A stretch of 49,951 bases of DNA from a virus (taxonomy: Duplodnaviria; Heunggongvirae; Uroviricota; Caudoviricetes). Position 1 is the first letter of the stretch, and each line of letters opens with the position of its first letter. Made by a program: the position numbers and the translations under genes. The notes under the pieces are model-generated. The model worked only from the letters and a program-made list of their open reading frames with translations. It was not told the DNA's origin and ran no database searches. The DNA is taken from IMG/VR virus record IMGVR_UViG_3300021403_000003, positions 1 to 49,951 of that record; one strand, 5' to 3'. Shown in pieces: positions 6,964-17,849 of this stretch.

Positions 6964-7554
6964 GTGATCAGTTTTGACATCGAAACTCTTGGAGTAAGCT
7001 CAGAAGTTGTTGTGCTTTCAGTTGGTATTGTGAAATTTGAGCTTTTCAATGCCAATACTGCTTGGCAACAGACTGATCCAAATGCATTAAACAACATCTA
7101 CAAGAAGATGTTGGATGATGCTTTGTTTGTCAAATTTGAGGTTGATGAACAGGTCGCGAAATATGGCCGTAAGGTTGAAAAGGAAGCGATTGATTTCTGG
7201 AAAGATCAATCTACAAGAGTAATCGAAAAAAGCTTTCGTCGTAATTTTAACATTGATTGTAAAATAATAGATGGAGTTATTAAAATAGCAGAATTTGTTA
7301 ATGGTGATCCAAATTTTTGGGCTCGTGGATCACTGGATCAGATTGTATACGATAGCCTTTGTCGAGCAGCTGGAAAACCCCTCGTAACTGAATACTGGTG
7401 TTGGTCAGATTATCGCACAGCTATCAATTTGACCAAAGAGACAGCCCGTAGAGGTTATTGCGACATCCCTGGTTTTGATCGTTCTTTGGTTGTGAAGCAT
7501 GACCCTGTTCACGACGCAGCCTATGATGTGATGATGTTGTTGTACGGTAAATAA
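6964..7554 (+). CDS. dexA: DexA-like 3'-5' exonuclease (DEDDh)
   Basis: SFDIETLG, WARGSLD, DYRT, HDPVHDAAYD. Confidence 0.8.
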   Translation: MISFDIETLGVSSEVVVLSVGIVKFELFNANTAWQQTDPNALNNIYKKMLDDALFVKFEVDEQVAKYGRKVEKEAIDFWKDQSTRVIEKSFRRNFNIDCKIIDGVIKIAEFVNGDPNFWARGSLDQIVYDSLCRAAGKPLVTEYWCWSDYRTAINLTKETARRGYCDIPGFDRSLVVKHDPVHDAAYDVMMLLYGK

Positions 7555-7568
7555 TACAAGGATATATC

Positions 7569-8009
7569 ATGATTCAGTTGAATAGAAAATCTTGGCATTT
7601 CTGGCTTGCATCCAAATTTGGTGACTATTGTTATAGTGAACCTGAATATCAAAACGTGTGTACATATACACGTTGCTTCCTTAAGGGATTGATTGTATTC
7701 ATAATTTCTACAATTTTGACTGTCTTTATGGGTGCAATATTCCTGGGATTGCCACTTTTTGCCTTGGGTTGGTTGATCGGTTACATGTTTGGATTTTTCT
7801 CACTATTTGATCCAAAAAGTCGATTGGCAGACACAGTCTTTTCTGGATTTTTGTTGTCCCTGATGTGGATTGTTTTTGGTATCATTTTTGGGATTGTGAA
7901 ATTTTGGAAAAATGGTAAGAAATTTGCTGCCGTTAAACAACCATCATTTCTGAAAGTTGCGTATAGGTCTTGGAAGGATAAATATTGTATCAAGGTTGAA
8001 TTTAAGTGA
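7569..8009 (+). CDS. hypothetical membrane protein
   Basis: Two long hydrophobic segments. Confidence 0.6.
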   Translation: MIQLNRKSWHFWLASKFGDYCYSEPEYQNVCTYTRCFLKGLIVFIISTILTVFMGAIFLGLPLFALGWLIGYMFGFFSLFDPKSRLADTVFSGFLLSLMWIVFGIIFGIVKFWKNGKKFAAVKQPSFLKVAYRSWKDKYCIKVEFK

Positions 8010-8299
8010 TTTCACTGTTTGATTTGATGAATGGATGTTTTGAAGGGTATGGTGCCTTCGGAGCTTGGTTAAACGTTATCAAGCTTCGAAAAGATAGAGA
8101 AATCAAGGGAATAGTTTGGCAATTGATGATAGGATGGTGGGCTTGGGGAATTTTCAACCTTTTCTATTACCCACATCTCGATCAGTGGTTTTCATTTAGT
8201 GCAGGTTGTGTGTTGGTTACAGGTAATGCAGCTTGGTTGATTACATGGCTAAAGATTCTGAAGATACGCGCACGTAGCTTAAATGTGAAGAGCGGCTGA
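8006..8299 (+). CDS. small three-helix membrane protein (PQ-loop/SemiSWEET-like, tentative)
   Basis: Three hydrophobic segments, about 97 aa. The last 32 nt overlap the tRNA-like gene. Confidence 0.5.
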   Translation: MISLFDLMNGCFEGYGAFGAWLNVIKLRKDREIKGIVWQLMIGWWAWGIFNLFYYPHLDQWFSFSAGCVLVTGNAAWLITWLKILKIRARSLNVKSG

Positions 8300-8341
8300 C
8301 TCTAAATCGGCGAGATGTGGGCACTCAATCCATCGTGCGCT
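8268..8341 (+). tRNA. amber-suppressor-like tRNA (anticodon CUA) with atypical T-loop
   Basis: Acceptor GCGCACG(8268-74)/CGTGCGC(8334-40); T8 A9; D-stem GCTT/GAGC; anticodon stem GCTGA/TCGGC with loop CT-CTA-AA; 5-nt variable loop; T-stem GTGGG/TCCAT with non-canonical loop CACTCAA; U73; no encoded CCA (TCA follows). Confidence 0.75.
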
Positions 8342-8351
8342 TCAATAGAGG

Positions 8352-8762
8352 GTGATCATGATAAACAAGTTGGTTGATAAATTTCTTTCCTGGCCATTGC
8401 CAAAAAGTGTTTGTTCTGACTTGTGCGTCAGTGATTCTAATTACAAGTTCCCAAGATATGGGACAAGTCTGCTTTCGGCTGAGGAAGCTAAACAGATGCT
8501 AGAATATGTATTACAGGAGAACAACGTGAGTGAAGTGAATTTGAAGAAGGGTGATCTGACTGACGAAGTTTGGAGAGAATATGATTTCTCAGGCCGAGTC
8601 TATCGTATTGAAGAGCCAGTGGAACTTTATTTTCGTCCAGGTGGTTCCACTCATCGAATCGTTGATGGTAAGGGAGTGGTTCACTGTGTTCCAGCTCCTG
8701 GTGTCAATGGTTGTGTTGTTCGTTGGAGAGTCAAACCTGGTAAAACTCATGTTCAGTTCTAA
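8352..8762 (+). CDS. hypothetical protein (possibly two fused small phage proteins)
   Basis: 136 aa ORF; internal AGGAG SD (8515-8519) before an in-frame GTG at 8526. Confidence 0.55.
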   Translation: MIMINKLVDKFLSWPLPKSVCSDLCVSDSNYKFPRYGTSLLSAEEAKQMLEYVLQENNVSEVNLKKGDLTDEVWREYDFSGRVYRIEEPVELYFRPGGSTHRIVDGKGVVHCVPAPGVNGCVVRWRVKPGKTHVQF

Positions 8763-8771
8763 GAGGTAATT

Positions 8772-9359
8772 ATGTGGTCTAAACTAAAAGCTTGGATAGT
8801 TGCTCATGCACCATTCAATTTGGCACCAGGAGCAATTGCTGCCGTGTTGTTCCTTATTTTCTTGATTCTTGTTGGTTTGTGGTTTGGTAAAGCACATGCT
8901 GCAACTGTGTTTGATGAAAAACCATATGTTCAATTTAATGTTGGTTCAACAGTGGTTCGTGGTGTTACACCAACATTTGGAATTGATTTGGTAGAACCAA
9001 CGAACCTTATCAAAGGTTCTGATATTGTTGTTGGGATGTTTGCTGTAGGTCGTTCTACTTGGAAGAACTGTCCAATTGATGGTAAAGGAAATCCTCAGTG
9101 TGAATCCAATTTGGTTTGGAGAGCAATTTTTGAAGATACAGTTTATGGAAATTCCTTTGGTGCTGTTCGTGCTGGAATTGGTATTTCTTACATGACCAAT
9201 TATCTTCCTTACAATGGCGGAAATGTTAATGCCAATCTTCAATTGGCTTATGAATTCTATAGAATCCCTATCACACTGACATATACTCATTTCTCATGCG
9301 GCGGATCTTGTAGTCCAAATGCTGGTAGAGATTTGTTGTTGTTGGGTTGGAGATTCTAA
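8772..9359 (+). CDS. outer-membrane beta-barrel, PagL (lipid A 3-O-deacylase)-like
   Basis: Signal/TM segment ending AHA-A; alternating strands; C-terminal YTHFSCGG..PNAGRDLLLLGWRF resembles the PagL H-x-S...PN.G motif; terminal Phe. Confidence 0.6.
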   Translation: MWSKLKAWIVAHAPFNLAPGAIAAVLFLIFLILVGLWFGKAHAATVFDEKPYVQFNVGSTVVRGVTPTFGIDLVEPTNLIKGSDIVVGMFAVGRSTWKNCPIDGKGNPQCESNLVWRAIFEDTVYGNSFGAVRAGIGISYMTNYLPYNGGNVNANLQLAYEFYRIPITLTYTHFSCGGSCSPNAGRDLLLLGWRF

Positions 9360-9605
9360 TTGTGGAAGTTCTTTGGACGCAAACCTGAAAAACCTTCTGG
9401 GAAATTTCAGTATCTTGGTCATTCTGTTCAAGCAAATAAGATTGATCTTTGGGTGAAATTTCCTGATGGTTCTACAGATTTGTTCCGTATTCCACTTGAA
9501 AAAGGTCTACTTGATCAATTTGAGATTGCGAAACAAGCAGAAAGACAAGGTATTAGAGTTATTGGTGAATTTATTGATGCCCAACTGCGGTTGGGAATTA
9601 TATAG
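9360..9605 (+). CDS. hypothetical protein
   Basis: 81 aa ORF abutting the previous stop; ends in TAG. Confidence 0.5.
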   Translation: MWKFFGRKPEKPSGKFQYLGHSVQANKIDLWVKFPDGSTDLFRIPLEKGLLDQFEIAKQAERQGIRVIGEFIDAQLRLGII

Positions 9606-9614
9606 GAGATTGAA

Positions 9615-10007
9615 ATGAAATTGTTACCATGGGTTACAGCTCTATTTTTGACGACAGCATTTGCTCAATCACAGAGTGATGAGCCACCAACAAGTCCGAT
9701 TCAAGCACAAATCTTGGGAAAAATTTTGTCAGGTAAAAAGATTGAATCAGATCCAGCACATAAAGTGCCAAATCAAGACGATCAACCTTTGACAGCTGTG
9801 ATTGTTACACAATGCAATCAAGTTGTTGCTGTATATTTCACAATGTCAAGTGGGAAATTGCTTCGTTTTGGAAAGGAAGCAGGAGTATCAGCCGAAACCC
9901 TTGTTGATTTGGCCTACAAGTCAGCTAAGTACAGTGAAAGAATTGAAGTTTCCTGTAATGGACTTGGTGAAACAGCCAGAGAACCACATTCCAGAAATGA
10001 CACATGA
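9615..10007 (+). CDS. secreted hypothetical protein
   Basis: Signal peptide MKLLPWVTALFLTTAFA; AGGAG SD; two Cys. Confidence 0.65.
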   Translation: MKLLPWVTALFLTTAFAQSQSDEPPTSPIQAQILGKILSGKKIESDPAHKVPNQDDQPLTAVIVTQCNQVVAVYFTMSSGKLLRFGKEAGVSAETLVDLAYKSAKYSERIEVSCNGLGETAREPHSRNDT

Positions 10008-10014
10008 GATTTAA

Positions 10015-10092
10015 ATGAAAGAAGATTACGAAGGTTTGTAGATTCCTGACACATATGTTCATTATGTTGCACGTGGTCCGCCATTCCCTTAA
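10015..10092 (+). other. candidate leader uORF with in-frame amber codon and RGPP motif
   Basis: ATG 10015 reads MKEDYEGL-[TAG 10039-41]-IPDTYVHYVARGPPFP-TAA, in the gap upstream of the Pth2-like gene. Confidence 0.4.
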
Positions 10093-10135
10093 ACTATTGA
10101 GCATCCCGTTCAAATCAAGTTTAAGGAGTCGAAAA

Positions 10136-10852
10136 ATGTTGGATTATAAGAAAGTTTGGTCTCACTTTCGTGTAGAAGGAACAGTGACACCATCACATGT
10201 TGTTGAGTTTTGTATCGTCAAGGCTGTATATGCATCTCGAGGAAATGAAAAGAAAGCCGAGAAGCTTCTCATTCAGTATCTATCAAAGGCTTTCACGCCC
10301 ATCACCCGTAAAAATAGGTTGGAAAATGGAGAGCATGAGTATTCATGCTTACAAAGAGCTATTCAAGGTATAAACAAATCATATGTTCTTGGAGTGCCAT
10401 CAATAGCACTCGAAAATTATGAGCTTCTTTATCATAACCTTCTTGATCATTTGACGTATCGTAAAGTTGCAGAATACAGTAAACGTAAGTACATGTATTT
10501 CTTTGTTCGTCAAGATATACCTAGAGAATATCAATTGGTTCAAACTGCTCATGTTGCATTGGTGAATGGTTGGCAAATCGCATTGGATAAAAGTATGGAT
10601 CCTGTTGATCCAAACAATATCTATTTCACTGTTGTTGGTGTACCTAATCTTGCTGCATTGAAGAAAGTAAGAGAAGATTTGCGTCATTTAGAAATTACTC
10701 ATAGTTTGTTTATAGAGCCTGATTTAGGAGATGAAGCAACATCTATTGCAACGTATCCTATCAAGGTTAATGAAAGAGGAAGACTTTTGACTTACAAGTT
10801 ATTGAGTTTTACTCTTACTGAGTTAGACCCTAAGATAGATCAAGTGGCCTAA
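10136..10852 (+). CDS. protein with C-terminal peptidyl-tRNA hydrolase type 2 (Pth2)-like domain
   Basis: KYMYFFVRQDI..EYQLVQTAHVA ... FTVVGVPNL..L ... FIEPDLGDEATSIATYP matches the Pth2 pattern (VRxDL, AQxxHA, EPD, TAIA). AAGGAG SD supports ATG 10136. Confidence 0.65.
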   Translation: MLDYKKVWSHFRVEGTVTPSHVVEFCIVKAVYASRGNEKKAEKLLIQYLSKAFTPITRKNRLENGEHEYSCLQRAIQGINKSYVLGVPSIALENYELLYHNLLDHLTYRKVAEYSKRKYMYFFVRQDIPREYQLVQTAHVALVNGWQIALDKSMDPVDPNNIYFTVVGVPNLAALKKVREDLRHLEITHSLFIEPDLGDEATSIATYPIKVNERGRLLTYKLLSFTLTELDPKIDQVA

Positions 10853-10855
10853 ATA
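10849..10855 (+). promoter_or_regulatory. T4-type late promoter (CTAAATA) at the 5' end of the tmRNA gene
   Basis: TAAATA variant of TATAAATA; the tmRNA base-pairing begins 2 nt downstream. Confidence 0.55.
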
Positions 10856-10856
10856 G

Positions 10857-11200
10857 GTCACGAAATGGTAGTAAACTGTTGATTAAAGGTGTTCAAGACG
10901 CGGGTGCAATTCCCGCCAGGTCCACCAACAGCACACTTGGCCAGAGGTCATGACTGGTCGTTTCTTGATGATGCCGAAAGGCTAACTGGAGTGTGCTTCT
11001 GATGGGCCTGACTAGCTTCGATTGGGCAAGTAATAACCCAATAGCTACCGGATTGGTGACTGCCCTAAGCAGCACAAAACGTTAAATGCAAACGATACTG
11101 CATTCGATGAAGATGAAGGCTTTGTAGAGCTCGCTCTCGCTGCCTGATTCTGAATCTGGGGTTTTGGTGGCTGTCCTTATCACCCAATCAGCCACCACTT
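10857..11200 (+). ncRNA. ssrA: circularly permuted (two-piece) tmRNA
   Basis: The 3' piece comes first: GAC, T-arm GCGGG-TGCAATT-CCCGC, CAGGTCC-A-CCA (ends 10927). The 5' piece starts GGGCCTG at 11004, giving a 7-bp acceptor stem with G3.U70. Long P2 helix between pieces: TGTTCAA/TTGGGCA, ATTA/TAAT, CTGTTG/CAATAG, GGTAG/CTACC, GTCAC/GTGAC. Tag ORF present. The 3' end is approximate (after hairpin 11166-11196). Confidence 0.92.
11088..11147 (+). other. tmRNA tag reading frame ANDTAFDEDEGFVELALAA
   Basis: Resume codon GCA preceded by TTAAAT; AND start and LAA end typical of proteobacterial ssrA tags. Confidence 0.9.
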
Positions 11201-11217
11201 ATATCATGAGGAAGTTA

Positions 11218-11445
11218 ATGGCTACAAGTGCTGATAAAGATCAATTTTCAATCATGATTGAAACAAGGGCCATCAATGATAAATGTAGTCATATTGATGC
11301 CATAATTTCTCATTGTGAGGAAACTGGGTTAGAAATTGAAGTAGTAAAATCTCTTATCAATATTCAACTAAAAAAGAAGATCGAAGCAGAAGCTCGTACC
11401 TTGAGGATGATCAAGGGAGGAAATGCTTCGAGGTTGCCAGTATGA
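11218..11445 (+). CDS. gp33: late promoter transcription coactivator gp33
   Basis: FSIMIE...IDAII.HCEE.GLEIE.VKSLI...LKKKIEAEA..L; GAGGA SD before ATG 11218; T4 gene 33-59-32 synteny. Confidence 0.85.
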   Translation: MATSADKDQFSIMIETRAINDKCSHIDAIISHCEETGLEIEVVKSLINIQLKKKIEAEARTLRMIKGGNASRLPV

Positions 11446-11783
11446 TTGAATTTGAACCAGAAAATCCTTTCAAAACTACATATGGCTTTGAAAGAAGACA
11501 AAATCCGAGGACAAGAGCAAATCTCAACGTTTATTTGGTCACAACTGATCAAAAAAAGAATGAAAGAAAGATAATCAAATTTCAGTCAATAAATATCAGT
11601 CGTTCTGGATTGCTGATTGATAGTGGTGATTTTCCATTCAGAAAGAACTCTTTTGTTGATTTGGCGTTTATGGCACCAATACAAGAAAATGTAAGTCGTT
11701 TGTATTACATGGATGCTTTTGTTCAACATACTGGCAATGGTAAGACAGGTTTCTCGATGACCAAGAAAGGTCCGAAGCCTTGA
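11442..11783 (+). CDS. PilZ-domain protein (putative c-di-GMP receptor)
   Basis: ERRQNPR (RxxxR) followed by INISRSG (D/N-x-S-x-x-G); 113 aa single domain. Confidence 0.75.
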   Translation: MIEFEPENPFKTTYGFERRQNPRTRANLNVYLVTTDQKKNERKIIKFQSINISRSGLLIDSGDFPFRKNSFVDLAFMAPIQENVSRLYYMDAFVQHTGNGKTGFSMTKKGPKP

Positions 11784-15076: not shown

Positions 15077-16873
15077 TTACAATCTTGAGATGTTTGAATA
15101 TCCAGCTGGATCATCAAACATCTGACTTGTCAATCGACTGATACTGGATTCTGGGTTCCTGGTTGAAATTTGAACAGCCAGGGATCCACTTTTCTTTGAT
15201 GATGGCATCACTTTTGTCGTGTTACCTCCCTTTATAACCAATACATTTGGTTGTGATTGCTGAGCAGATTTCATTTCAGTGTTCTGAGCACTTGCTGCTG
15301 CAACCCTTTCAGGAAGTTGTTTAGGAACAGGTGCAACCTGTGGGGTTTTGATTTCAAGTTTTTTGTATAGATCAGAATGTTCTTTAACGTATTCTTGTTC
15401 TTTTTTGGAGTACCCACCACGCGTATCACCTGTCATTGCACCAACGAGATGCTTATAATCATCAGGTAATTCATCATATGTTGTTTGTTTGCCATTAAGA
15501 ACAAATTTACCTTGACCCAAAGCTTTCAAACCATATTTCTGTAATGCTTCGGCAGGTTTCATTGCGCGATCTGTTTCATACTTGGCCAGTCTATCAATAC
15601 CATAGGCTCCAGCTGCTGTGATGGCAACAGCACCTGCACCAGCTACAACTTCAGCAGTCCCAACTCCTTCGAGCAGGTTTTTACCAAGACCCTTCAATGT
15701 ATCACCGATTTTTACACCGAGCTTTGCAGCAAAACGAGCCATTGTTGAACCAAATCTCTTCAATACATCCCAAATTTTACCAACACTGTTGAGAATGGTT
15801 TTGACTGTGTCGAAGATTGGTTTTATCTTTTTCCATAATCCAGCAATAGCAGCTGAGATCATTCCTAATATTCCCATGCCCATACCACCATGCTGCTTAT
15901 GCTTTATATCATCCAGTTCCTTCAATATTAGATCAAGTTTGTCATTGATTGCCTTTGCTTCTTTTTCGTGTACGACTTCTGTTTGAACAGTTTGAGCCTT
16001 TTCTTGATCTTCATTTTTCTGAGGAACAGGGAGTTTTTCCTGTGGACTTGTTTGAATTTGTGGTTGAGAGAACTTCTCATGAAGATCAGCGGCCATAAGT
16101 GGAGCAATTTGTTTTGGAACCTTATCTACAGTTTCTCCCTTTATTTTCTTTGGTTTTTCAATTTTTTCAGCTTTTGGCCTCTCAAACTTATAACCAAGCT
16201 TCTCTAATGGTTTTACAGCCGTCCTCTTGAATGAGCTTGCGAATGCAGAAGTGAATTTTTTGACAGCAGAAGATTTACGTTGAAGTTTTTCAGGAATTTT
16301 CTTACCTTGAGCTTCAAGTGTTTTCTTAAGATCTTCAAGAGTGAGTTTTACAGCCTTGATATCTTTACTAGTTGTTTCTTCTCGTTGATCTTCTTTCTTA
16401 GATTCAACAGATGATCTCTTTATCAACTTAGCCGCAAGATCTTTACCAACGAGGTTCTTGATAAAATTTCTAGCAAATCCTGTATTAGGCTTGGATGGAA
16501 TACCTGCGTTCGTAGGTTTTTCTTGATCTGTTACTGGTTTTTGTTCTTGGGAGCCTGCGATCGTAGGTTTTTGTTCTGGTGTAGTTGATACTGTGCTCTC
16601 AGTTGCAGGTGCAGGAGTTTGTTCCTTGGCTTCAGGTGTAACAGATTTTTGTCCTACAGCTTGTTTTGCTCTTTGTACAGATTGTCTCTTGTTGTCATTA
16701 TTCTTTGTCAAAGCATTTTTGGCAACTGGAACTGATTTTGCAGGCATATGTTCATCTAACAGTTTTTGAACTGATGGGGGTACTTCCTTGCCTTGCTTTT
16801 TGAAGTTATCTGCAAGCTCAGTTAATGAAACACCACCTGGAGTTTTGCCTGTTGGTCTTGATTTCTTTGCCAT
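15077..16873 (-). CDS. tape measure / tail length determinator (gp29-like)
   Basis: Long Lys/Glu-rich low-complexity N-half, amphipathic Gly/Ala helices; position downstream of the gp54-gp26-gp51 block. Confidence 0.6.
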   Translation of the reverse strand: MAKKSRPTGKTPGGVSLTELADNFKKQGKEVPPSVQKLLDEHMPAKSVPVAKNALTKNNDNKRQSVQRAKQAVGQKSVTPEAKEQTPAPATESTVSTTPEQKPTIAGSQEQKPVTDQEKPTNAGIPSKPNTGFARNFIKNLVGKDLAAKLIKRSSVESKKEDQREETTSKDIKAVKLTLEDLKKTLEAQGKKIPEKLQRKSSAVKKFTSAFASSFKRTAVKPLEKLGYKFERPKAEKIEKPKKIKGETVDKVPKQIAPLMAADLHEKFSQPQIQTSPQEKLPVPQKNEDQEKAQTVQTEVVHEKEAKAINDKLDLILKELDDIKHKQHGGMGMGILGMISAAIAGLWKKIKPIFDTVKTILNSVGKIWDVLKRFGSTMARFAAKLGVKIGDTLKGLGKNLLEGVGTAEVVAGAGAVAITAAGAYGIDRLAKYETDRAMKPAEALQKYGLKALGQGKFVLNGKQTTYDELPDDYKHLVGAMTGDTRGGYSKKEQEYVKEHSDLYKKLEIKTPQVAPVPKQLPERVAAASAQNTEMKSAQQSQPNVLVIKGGNTTKVMPSSKKSGSLAVQISTRNPESSISRLTSQMFDDPAGYSNISRL

Positions 16874-17094
16874 TATTTCTTATTGATCCTAGATGGTTTT
16901 CTACCTTTATTTTTGTTAGATATTGCTTCCAATTGCATTCTCAAATTTTCTTCCTCAACCTCTTTTGCTAACAAATTCAAAAGAATATCCCTTTCCCAAG
17001 GGATCATATCATCAAAGACTCTTGGATCTTTGTTATGATGATGGAAGAGCGTGAATGTTGTGAGAAAGTATTGCCTTAGCCCTTCGTCGGGCAA
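16873..17094 (-). CDS. gp51: baseplate hub assembly catalyst gp51-like ORF; probably expressed as a -1 frameshift extension of the upstream gene
   Basis: LRQYF.T.F.LFHHH...DDMIPWERDILL.LL...EEEN motif. No ATG start; the TTG lies inside a stem; the frame is open back to the GGATTTT site. Confidence 0.75.
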   Translation of the reverse strand: MPDEGLRQYFLTTFTLFHHHNKDPRVFDDMIPWERDILLNLLAKEVEEENLRMQLEAISNKNKGRKPSRINKK

Positions 17095-17112
17095 TACTGC
17101 TAGGTAAAATCC
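17067..17112 (-). promoter_or_regulatory. candidate -1 programmed ribosomal frameshift signal
   Basis: Minus strand: G GAT TTT (17112-17106), spacer ACCTAGC, stem AGTATTGCC / 14-nt loop / GGCAATACT. Confidence 0.65.
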
Positions 17113-17849
17113 TCAAGACCCTCCAATGTTATTTTGTGATGAAATCCACACTTTGAACAAGTCTTCTCAACTTTTTGTTGGATTACGGGACAGTTTTCGA
17201 AGAATTTTTCAACCTGTGCATATTTATCTTGACTGAGTGATTCTATGAAATTGATCATTTCATCCAAACTCACATCATCGCCTTTGGTGATAGTGTCATT
17301 ATCAAAGACATAATCAACACACATTGCGGCCAATTTGATATCTAAATCACCAGTTGATTTCGCCAATTGTTGAGTCATCTCGAATGTTGGTAATTTCATT
17401 ACCATTCCAATGTTTTCCCCTTCCAAGAAGATTTTCTTATTGACATCTTTGTTGATTACAGGAACTTGTAACAAATCAATATCGAATTCCAAAAGCATGC
17501 CACATTCTTCGCTTTGTGGGACATTTGGATTCTTTGGTGGATTGACCGGTATTTTATTGTTGCATTTGAAAAATAGAGGTGTTTTTTCACCACTAGAACG
17601 AGCCCAAATGTTCAGGAATAACCATTCCAGATCAACCATAGGGAGTTGATCAACATCTATTTCTTTGTTTACCAGGCAATTTCTCAGAATTTGTTTGAAT
17701 GCATCAACAATTGATTCTGTTTCTTTGCTTTCCTTGGCCATCATCAAAATCTTACTTTCCTTTACACTGAAAGGAACAAATGATATAGGTTCAGAACGGG
17801 AAAGGACATTAGCCTTATAGATTGGCCGGTCTATCACTGGCAATGGCAT
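17100..17849 (-). CDS. gp26: baseplate hub assembly protein gp26-like
   Basis: MPLPVI..P.Y, FVPFSVKESKILMMA, DLEWLFLNIWARSSGE, CSKCG....ITLEGLEDF. Confidence 0.8.
   Translation of the reverse strand: MPLPVIDRPIYKANVLSRSEPISFVPFSVKESKILMMAKESKETESIVDAFKQILRNCLVNKEIDVDQLPMVDLEWLFLNIWARSSGEKTPLFFKCNNKIPVNPPKNPNVPQSEECGMLLEFDIDLLQVPVINKDVNKKIFLEGENIGMVMKLPTFEMTQQLAKSTGDLDIKLAAMCVDYVFDNDTITKGDDVSLDEMINFIESLSQDKYAQVEKFFENCPVIQQKVEKTCSKCGFHHKITLEGLEDFT

Follow-up and report, generated by a model that had tools for sequence, protein, structure and literature searches.

A candidate -1 frameshift joining the gp26-like and gp51-like reading frames of a phage genome from a soil metagenome, and its relation to tail assembly chaperone genes

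Among the tail genes of long-tailed phages, the tail assembly chaperone genes reportedly share a conserved -1 frameshift, as Xu, Hendrix and Duda are said to have described in 2004, and the E/E+E' pair of P2 is a myovirus example. In the lambda gpG/gpGT system (frameshifts of this type are summarised in PMC5009743), two overlapping frames lie directly before the tape measure gene, the second frame is in -1 and lacks a proper start, and a short abundant product and a rare long product are made. This work concerns a junction of similar layout in an uncultured T4-like soil virus (Caudoviricetes), where a gp26-like open reading frame (ORF) ends and a gp51-like ORF runs on in the -1 frame. The DNA analysed, hereafter the window, is a stretch of 49,951 nucleotides (nt), positions 1 to 49,951 of the IMG/VR record IMGVR_UViG_3300021403_000003. 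The record is a complete virus genome of 176,865 bp, and the only public sequencing run that contains it is a soil DNA metagenome. All genes concerned are on the minus strand.

The T4 counterparts, genes 26 and 51, are two distinct genes with divergent transcription, and T4 gp51 resembles the lambda-type chaperones in being needed for assembly and absent from the particle (PMC3004832). In cyanophages and marine vibriophages, gp51 was found to lack approximately 200 N-terminal residues, gp51 was reported missing in Aeh1, and no frameshift was proposed (Sullivan et al. 2010, PMC3037559). Our literature searches found no published description of a gp26/gp51 frameshift. Among other described shift sites, the IS1 and IS3 elements use tetramers, and U_UUU and U_UUC rank second and third among tetramers in E. 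coli when a stimulator is present (Sharma et al. 2014, PMC4066793). Umbraviruses and dianthoviruses shift at G_GAU_UUU, and the site of pea enation mosaic virus 2 (PEMV2), G_GAU_UUU_UGG_UAG, depends on the nearby stop (PMC5009743).

The junction of the two frames in the window

The gp26-like ORF ends in GAG GAT TTT ACC TAG and the gp51-like frame lies in -1 relative to it, both as described in a first-pass annotation made from the sequence. The features of the junction are listed here.

17100..17849, minus strand: gp26-like ORF, 0 frame, coding for the predicted short product of 249 amino acids (aa); PF12322, E 2.3e-50; phrog_150; AlphaFold2 model with a predicted local distance difference test score (pLDDT) of 90.4
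16873-17094, minus strand, -1 frame relative to gp26: gp51-like ORF; phrog_634, E 5e-13
16873..17106, minus strand, -1 frame: coding region of the gp51 tail, 77 codons, from TAC (17106-17104) to TAA (16875-16873); phrog_634
17106..17112, minus strand: proposed shift site G_GAU_UUU, with the in-phase tetramer U_UUU (17109-17106) as the effective motif; the same site is present in the related contigs L094 and L095
17100..17102, minus strand: 0-frame stop TAG, 3 nt 3' of the shift site
17113..17115, minus strand: TGA closing the -1 frame upstream, found by translation of that frame, which bounds the shift window
17119..17124, minus strand: GGAGGG, resembling a Shine-Dalgarno (SD) sequence, 5' of the shift site at a distance of 6 nt from G_GAU_UUU and 9 nt from U_UUU
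17092..17094, minus strand: TTG from the ORF list, rival start for a free 73-aa gp51 tail, in frame and inside the 5' arm of the stem described below

Read in the -1 frame, the junction gives GFYLAVLPDEGLR. Since the TGA (17115-17113) stands directly before GGA TTT TAC, any shift must fall within four codons. The predicted fusion has 248 + 77 = 325 aa, as had been estimated, and its predicted junction peptide is LEDFYLAVLPDEGLR. Readthrough of the TAG was considered as a route to the fusion and rejected: the 0 frame gains just 8 residues before a TAA and cannot yield it.

We propose, from the sequence and its comparison with relatives, that a -1 frameshift probably fuses gp26 to the gp51 tail in the window. 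The gp26-like gene would then be a two-product gene, in which most ribosomes would terminate at TAG 17100 and release the 249-aa gp26-like protein, and a minority would slip back one base with tRNA-Phe on UUU (17108-17106); since the preceding codon ends in U, this tRNA also meets UUU in the -1 frame and can pair again. The shifted ribosomes would read TAC CTA GCA GTA TTG and onward, adding 77 residues to give the 325-aa gp26-gp51 fusion, which would be the counterpart of the gp51 that T4 encodes separately. Putative stimulators are the conserved hairpin, with its 9-bp stem and 7-nt spacer, and, less surely, the G-rich SD-like stretch upstream and the 0-frame stop that comes one codon later. 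Going by the lambda G/GT analogy and the chaperone roles reported for T4 gp26 and gp51, the short and long forms would cooperate in assembly of the hub and the tape measure and be absent from the virion. Slipping on this short site, the slip rate and the binding partners are what we infer.

The gp51-like ORF had been described as lacking an ATG and a well-spaced SD sequence, which is the case. The TTG at 17094, 5 nt past the gp26 stop, is the sole ATG, GTG or TTG in the gp51 frame; the nearest GAGG is approximately 16 nt upstream of it and no SD sequence is found within 5-12 nt. The ATG of gp26 itself has GAGG 8 nt upstream. A second SD-like word, GAGGA, abuts the shift site. Across the family, an SD-like 4-mer occurs upstream of the site in 59 of 84 members versus 9% of control windows, and the Glu codons GAG and GAA are used in a ratio of 42:38 near the site versus 518:1365 in gene bodies. 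In dnaX the upstream SD-like element has a spacing of 10 nt; that of the window is closer (6-9 nt). The window otherwise resembles dnaX and the tetramer sites of IS1 and IS3 (PMC4066793) in its in-phase U_UUY, a hairpin approximately 6-7 nt downstream and an SD-like element upstream, and differs from them in being a phage structural-assembly gene.

The slippery run in relatives and its reduced form

The loci compared were 80 from IMG/VR, 6 from metagenomes, 10 protein-collection contigs and 9 named phages. Without exception, the gp26 genes of the 73 distinct IMG/VR relatives have an in-phase T_TTT_TTN at their ends (36 TTTTTTT, 33 TTTTTTC and 4 TTTTTTA). Its distance from the gp26 stop is 0-24 nt; the stop follows exactly 3 nt past it in 59 relatives and 0 nt past it in 10, i.e., within 3 nt in 69 of 73. 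The residue preceding the Phe-Phe pair is variable (Ser, Asn, Asp, His), its codon is without exception NNT and that of the first Phe TTT, a combination expected just 51% of the time from codon usage in the gene bodies; the chance of such uniformity is about 1e-6 even with merely 20 independent lineages. The gp51 homologue invariably continues in the -1 frame from the heptamer and its conserved residues start at the junction. No ATG, GTG or TTG precedes these residues in 47 of 74 sequences and an ATG does so in only 7, with L001 and HTVC008M as clear cases of a gp51 without a start codon. The same signal is found in KVP40, Aeh1, phiM12, DLP6, ACP17, Cr30, Milchi, P-SSM2 and HTVC008M. None of these nine records marks slippage; gp26 and the tail appear in them as separate genes, or the tail has no annotation, in agreement with the first-pass remark that T4-like annotations treat the two as separate genes. 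We consider a family-wide gp26-gp51 -1 frameshift very likely.

In Aeh1 (AY266303.2), gene 26 ends with T_TTT_TTC and is followed by an unannotated -1 tail containing ...TPFERAIY....

The runs of 6-8 T in relatives could also act at the level of transcription, homopolymer runs being known slippage sites (PMC5009743): RNA polymerase would add one U in the run, and normal translation would yield the fusion. This origin is extremely improbable in the window, where the run is four T only. Half of the relatives have only six T, with the second Phe codon staying TTC, and the conserved hairpin at 5-7 nt suits ribosomal shifting.

Comparison with T4 supports the assignment of the two predicted products. 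T4 gp51 (249 aa) consists of a PF12322 domain (residues 1-201, E 3.9e-52) followed by a phrog_634 tail (match at residues 147-246, E 1.2e-23). A profile of 83 predicted fusions aligns with T4 gp51 residues 16-246 as one domain across the junction, and T4 gp26 (208 aa) aligns up to the junction and stops there at ...EFFELL; these alignments make the predicted fusion the counterpart of T4 gp51 and the unshifted product the counterpart of T4 gp26. Pairwise BLASTP between the window tail and T4 gp51 gave no significant match, and profiles alone link them. The window matches the same families as the T4 proteins (PF12322, phrog_150, phrog_634) and its predicted fusion is collinear with T4 gp51. T4, however, has two genes, each with a gp26-type domain, whereas in the window one gene would supply both products: it holds a single gp26-type domain with the tail behind it in the -1 frame, not two genes with their own starts. 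A single chain of gp26-type domain and tail requires the frameshift in the window. Gene 26 of T4 also has no slippery run. Five phages in which a full-length gp51 has a gene of its own (T4, RB69, Bp7, Ac42 and avDM1) provide a negative control: none of them has the T-run at the end of gene 26, and three keep Phe-Phe, spelled TTC TTT after GAG or GAA. The full-length gp51 of GenBank MN709128.1 is labelled tape measure protein assembly chaperone.

A third layout is found in Klebsiella phage Kp_GWPR59 (OP970827.1), in which a gp26-type gene (185 aa) lies after a full-length gp51-type gene (247 aa) in the same orientation, with gp25 next.

A blastn search with the region under study found nothing among phage records. 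In IMG/VR and the metagenome contigs no relative closer than 53% was found, and the closer ones (85%, 73% and 72%) were found solely in the protein collection. Two of these, on the independent contigs L094 and L095 (85% and 73% gp26 identity), share GAG GAT TTT ACN TAG, and the 72% relative ends likewise in ...EDFT. An identical reduced site in independent contigs is not an assembly error. A second reduced lineage has CAT TTC ACG TAG (L096) and CAT TTT ACG TGA (L111), and an in-phase U_UUU or U_UUC is retained in five of five reduced sites. G_GAU_UUU is a shortened T_TTT_TTN that is conserved in the window's own clade, and is not the slippery site of the family. The first-pass annotation had asked for a check of heptamer and stem conservation at gp26/gp51 junctions; the slippery run T_TTT_TTN is present in 73 of 73 relatives and the stem in 8 sequences.

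The first-pass annotation had recognised GGAUUUU as a heptamer of plant RNA viruses. It is indeed identical to the umbravirus and dianthovirus site, and the window shares with PEMV2 the 0-frame UAG 3 nt past the heptamer. The plant virus sites, in contrast, work on eukaryotic ribosomes with long-range RNA stimulators, and the analogy does not carry the case. The likeness arose through shortening of a U-run and is probably coincidental.

A stretch of 18 nt, GAGGGTCTTGAGGATTTT, is identical in the window, L094 and L095, and in this clade the last six gp26 codons (GAG GGT CTT GAG GAT TTT) are nucleotide-identical, whereas upstream 18 of 24 codons conserved in amino acid differ synonymously. Among the first 50 codons of the tail in the clade, 17 are identical, 25 differ synonymously and 8 carry replacements, indicating purifying selection. 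These figures bear on the view that the clade, having lost the heptamer, has also lost the frameshift and no longer makes or needs the tail. Such decay is highly improbable given the excess of synonymous over replacement changes, a tail ORF that stays open across 73-85% gp26 identity, and the retained family motif (I/V)PWER(D/E)I.

The downstream hairpin and the start-type codon within it

Two RNA elements were considered downstream of the shift site.

17067..17098, minus strand: hairpin with a 9-bp stem and a 14-nt loop, 7-nt spacer after the shift site
17044..17050, minus strand: GCUCUUC, a speculative pseudoknot partner complementary to the loop sequence GAAGGGC (17085-17079)

Folding bore out the perfect 9-bp stem and 7-nt spacer reported initially: AGTATTGCC (17098-17090) pairs with GGCAATACT (17075-17067) after the spacer ACCTAGC. 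The same helix is found in eight sequences (the window, L094, L095, L096, L004, L097, L099 and L101), whose gp26 identity to the window protein goes down to about 50%; L004 combines this class of hairpin with a T_TTT_TTC site. Across these eight sequences 95.8% of cells are paired, which none of 500 shuffles matched; sliding the stem partner lowers pairing to 22-64%, and both-side compensatory changes occur in five of the nine stem pairs. Some of the compensatory changes replace an amino acid (Tyr to His, Gln to Glu), suggesting that selection acts on the RNA. The hairpin is spaced 5-7 nt from the motif, and other subclade members carry, at the equivalent place, strong hairpins that differ from it.

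GCUCUUC and the loop GAAGGGC are both invariant in the window, L094 and L095. We do not claim a pseudoknot between them, because the possible pairings in relatives sit in shifted registers. Among the cyanophage-type relatives the mean fold z is -0.82 versus -0.38 in control windows, which shows no general conserved structure there. Some cyanophage-type IMG/VR loci (e.g., L025, L051, L078 and L080) show a recurrent hairpin approximately 20 nt past the heptamer, built from Ser-Leu-Val and Tyr-Lys-Thr codons, whose sequence varies by locus with the pairing maintained.

Several observations weigh against frameshifting at the window's site. The site has only four T and the canonical T_TTT_TTN is not present. 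Bare U_UUU is a weak motif in E. coli assays (PMC4066793), and re-pairing of the P-site tRNA-Asp from GAU to GGA is poor. The folding energy of the hairpin is in itself unremarkable (-10.8 kcal/mol, z -0.88, with 38 of 200 shuffles folding equally well). Reduced slip sites are confined to the hairpin class, and all eight sequences of this class, those with a full heptamer included, carry an in-frame start-type codon (GTG, ATG or TTG) within the stem's 5' arm.

The last of these points would suit a start codon that the stem hides and that is uncovered as ribosomes terminate 5 nt upstream. Termination of gp26 at the TAG would melt the stem and allow a restart at TTG 17094, giving a free 73-aa tail either alone or alongside the frameshift; coupled initiation would then have replaced or accompanied frameshifting in the clade, as a step towards the separate genes of T4. 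The heptamer is lost exactly in the lineages with an in-frame GTG or TTG beside the stop, the stop and the TTG are 5 nt apart, and gene callers place the gp51 start at the TTG position. We nevertheless regard termination-reinitiation, taken together with this evolutionary extension, as rather unlikely, although deserving serious consideration. TTG is a weak start, has no SD sequence at a working distance and is buried in the 9-bp stem; T4 and all the predicted fusions have the tail joined to a gp26-type domain; every one of the reduced sites retains the in-phase U_UUY, keeping T at the synonymous position; and the subclade relatives L001, L098, L100, L102 and L103 have no start codon at all. 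The -1 frameshift is supported by the heptamer of the relatives, the missing gp51 starts, the absence of any run where gp51 is separate, collinearity with T4 gp51, covariation in the hairpin, and a gp26 N-domain model that moderately resembles tail assembly chaperones.

Protein fold, gene order and relation to tail assembly chaperones

When residues 1-95 of the gp26 model were compared by VIA-align, the highest entries were 3fgx (Z 8.0), YqbN of B. subtilis (3klu, Z 7.1), which is the XkdN-type chaperone of a PBSX-like element, and the HK97 tail assembly chaperone (2ob9, Z 7.1, 85 of 104 residues aligned); a Z below 8 may reflect a merely common arrangement, so that a shared fold is not certain at that level, a reservation to be added to those above. 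The next row has Z 4.8, and ORF12 of lactococcal phage p2, the chaperone of that phage, is found lower in the list at Z 3.2. The modelled N-domain of gp26 thus resembles tail assembly chaperones; the match is moderate and supports the analogy with G/GT, and is no proof of homology. A Foldseek search of the model against the PDB and a profile search of PDB sequences gave no match, and among the AlphaFold DB clusters only other gp26-type baseplate proteins were matched. In Pfam, gp26 matches only PF12322 (T4_baseplate, profile positions 3-217 of 219) and the tail matches nothing, with no membership of the TAC or tail_T families. The phrog_634 match of the window tail is limited to profile positions 63-115 of 121, and that family is annotated as baseplate hub assembly catalyst, gp51.

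Residues 88-246 of the model show a weak likeness to Hsp40/DnaJ peptide-binding domains (Z 2.8-3.7, four entries). Cysteines C58, C116, C231 and C234 of gp26 are invariant, which suggests a zinc site.

Next in order after the gp51 tail is a long ORF.

15077..16873, minus strand: tape-measure-like ORF, 598 aa, assigned by position and size; the start ATG shares bases with the stop of gp51 (TAATG)

In nearly all relatives, gp51 is followed by a large ORF. Among eight T4 proteins, the best match to a profile of these ORFs is T4 gp29, at a weak 18.9 bits; pairwise BLASTP between the 598-aa ORF and T4 gp29 gave no significant match, and the profile alone connects them. The homologous neighbour genes in HTVC008M, Cr30 and phiM12 carry a tape measure annotation. 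The genes upstream of the gp26-like one code for a gp19-type tail tube protein and a gp2-type DNA end protector. The ORF order and the -1 frame support the early suggestion of a lambda G/G-T-like layout before a tape measure gene. Other points of likeness are a short product predicted to be abundant and a long product predicted to be rare, and an N-domain model that resembles the solved HK97 chaperone. Unlike the lambda-type genes, the window gene belongs to no Pfam TAC or tail_T family, its short product of 249 aa has a second Cys-rich domain and about twice the length of gpG, its site is a tetramer instead of a heptamer, and its function is tied to the baseplate hub.

In the two closest relatives of the window, L094 (2912-3370) and L095 (3438-3899), an HNH endonuclease ORF (152-153 aa; PF01844, with NUMOD3 in one) separates the gp51 tail from the tape-measure-like gene; no HNH ORF is present there in the window. 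ARAGORN found no tRNA or transfer-messenger RNA (tmRNA) in window positions 7500-11500, although the program may miss a permuted tmRNA or an unusual tRNA.

The frameshift reading accounts for the gp51 of cyanophages and marine vibriophages that is short of approximately 200 N-terminal residues, the missing part being gp26, and for the gp51 reported missing in Aeh1 (PMC3037559). It also ties T4 hub assembly to the mechanism of lambda G/GT. The 688 phage records that match gp26 would need correcting should their annotation follow the same pattern as the nine records above. We put forward, as a proposal with about even chances, that gp26 and gp51 are the G/GT chaperones of the T4 superfamily, so that the chaperone frameshift of long-tailed phages would extend to T4-like phages, T4 itself would be derived, having split the gene into paralogues, and the window clade would be a natural intermediate with a bare U_UUU, reliant on a hairpin (possibly a pseudoknot) that may also gate a start codon. 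With the heptamer reduced to a tetramer and the hairpin kept, the window clade is a natural experiment on how much slippery sequence is needed, or on how a frameshift gene becomes two genes.

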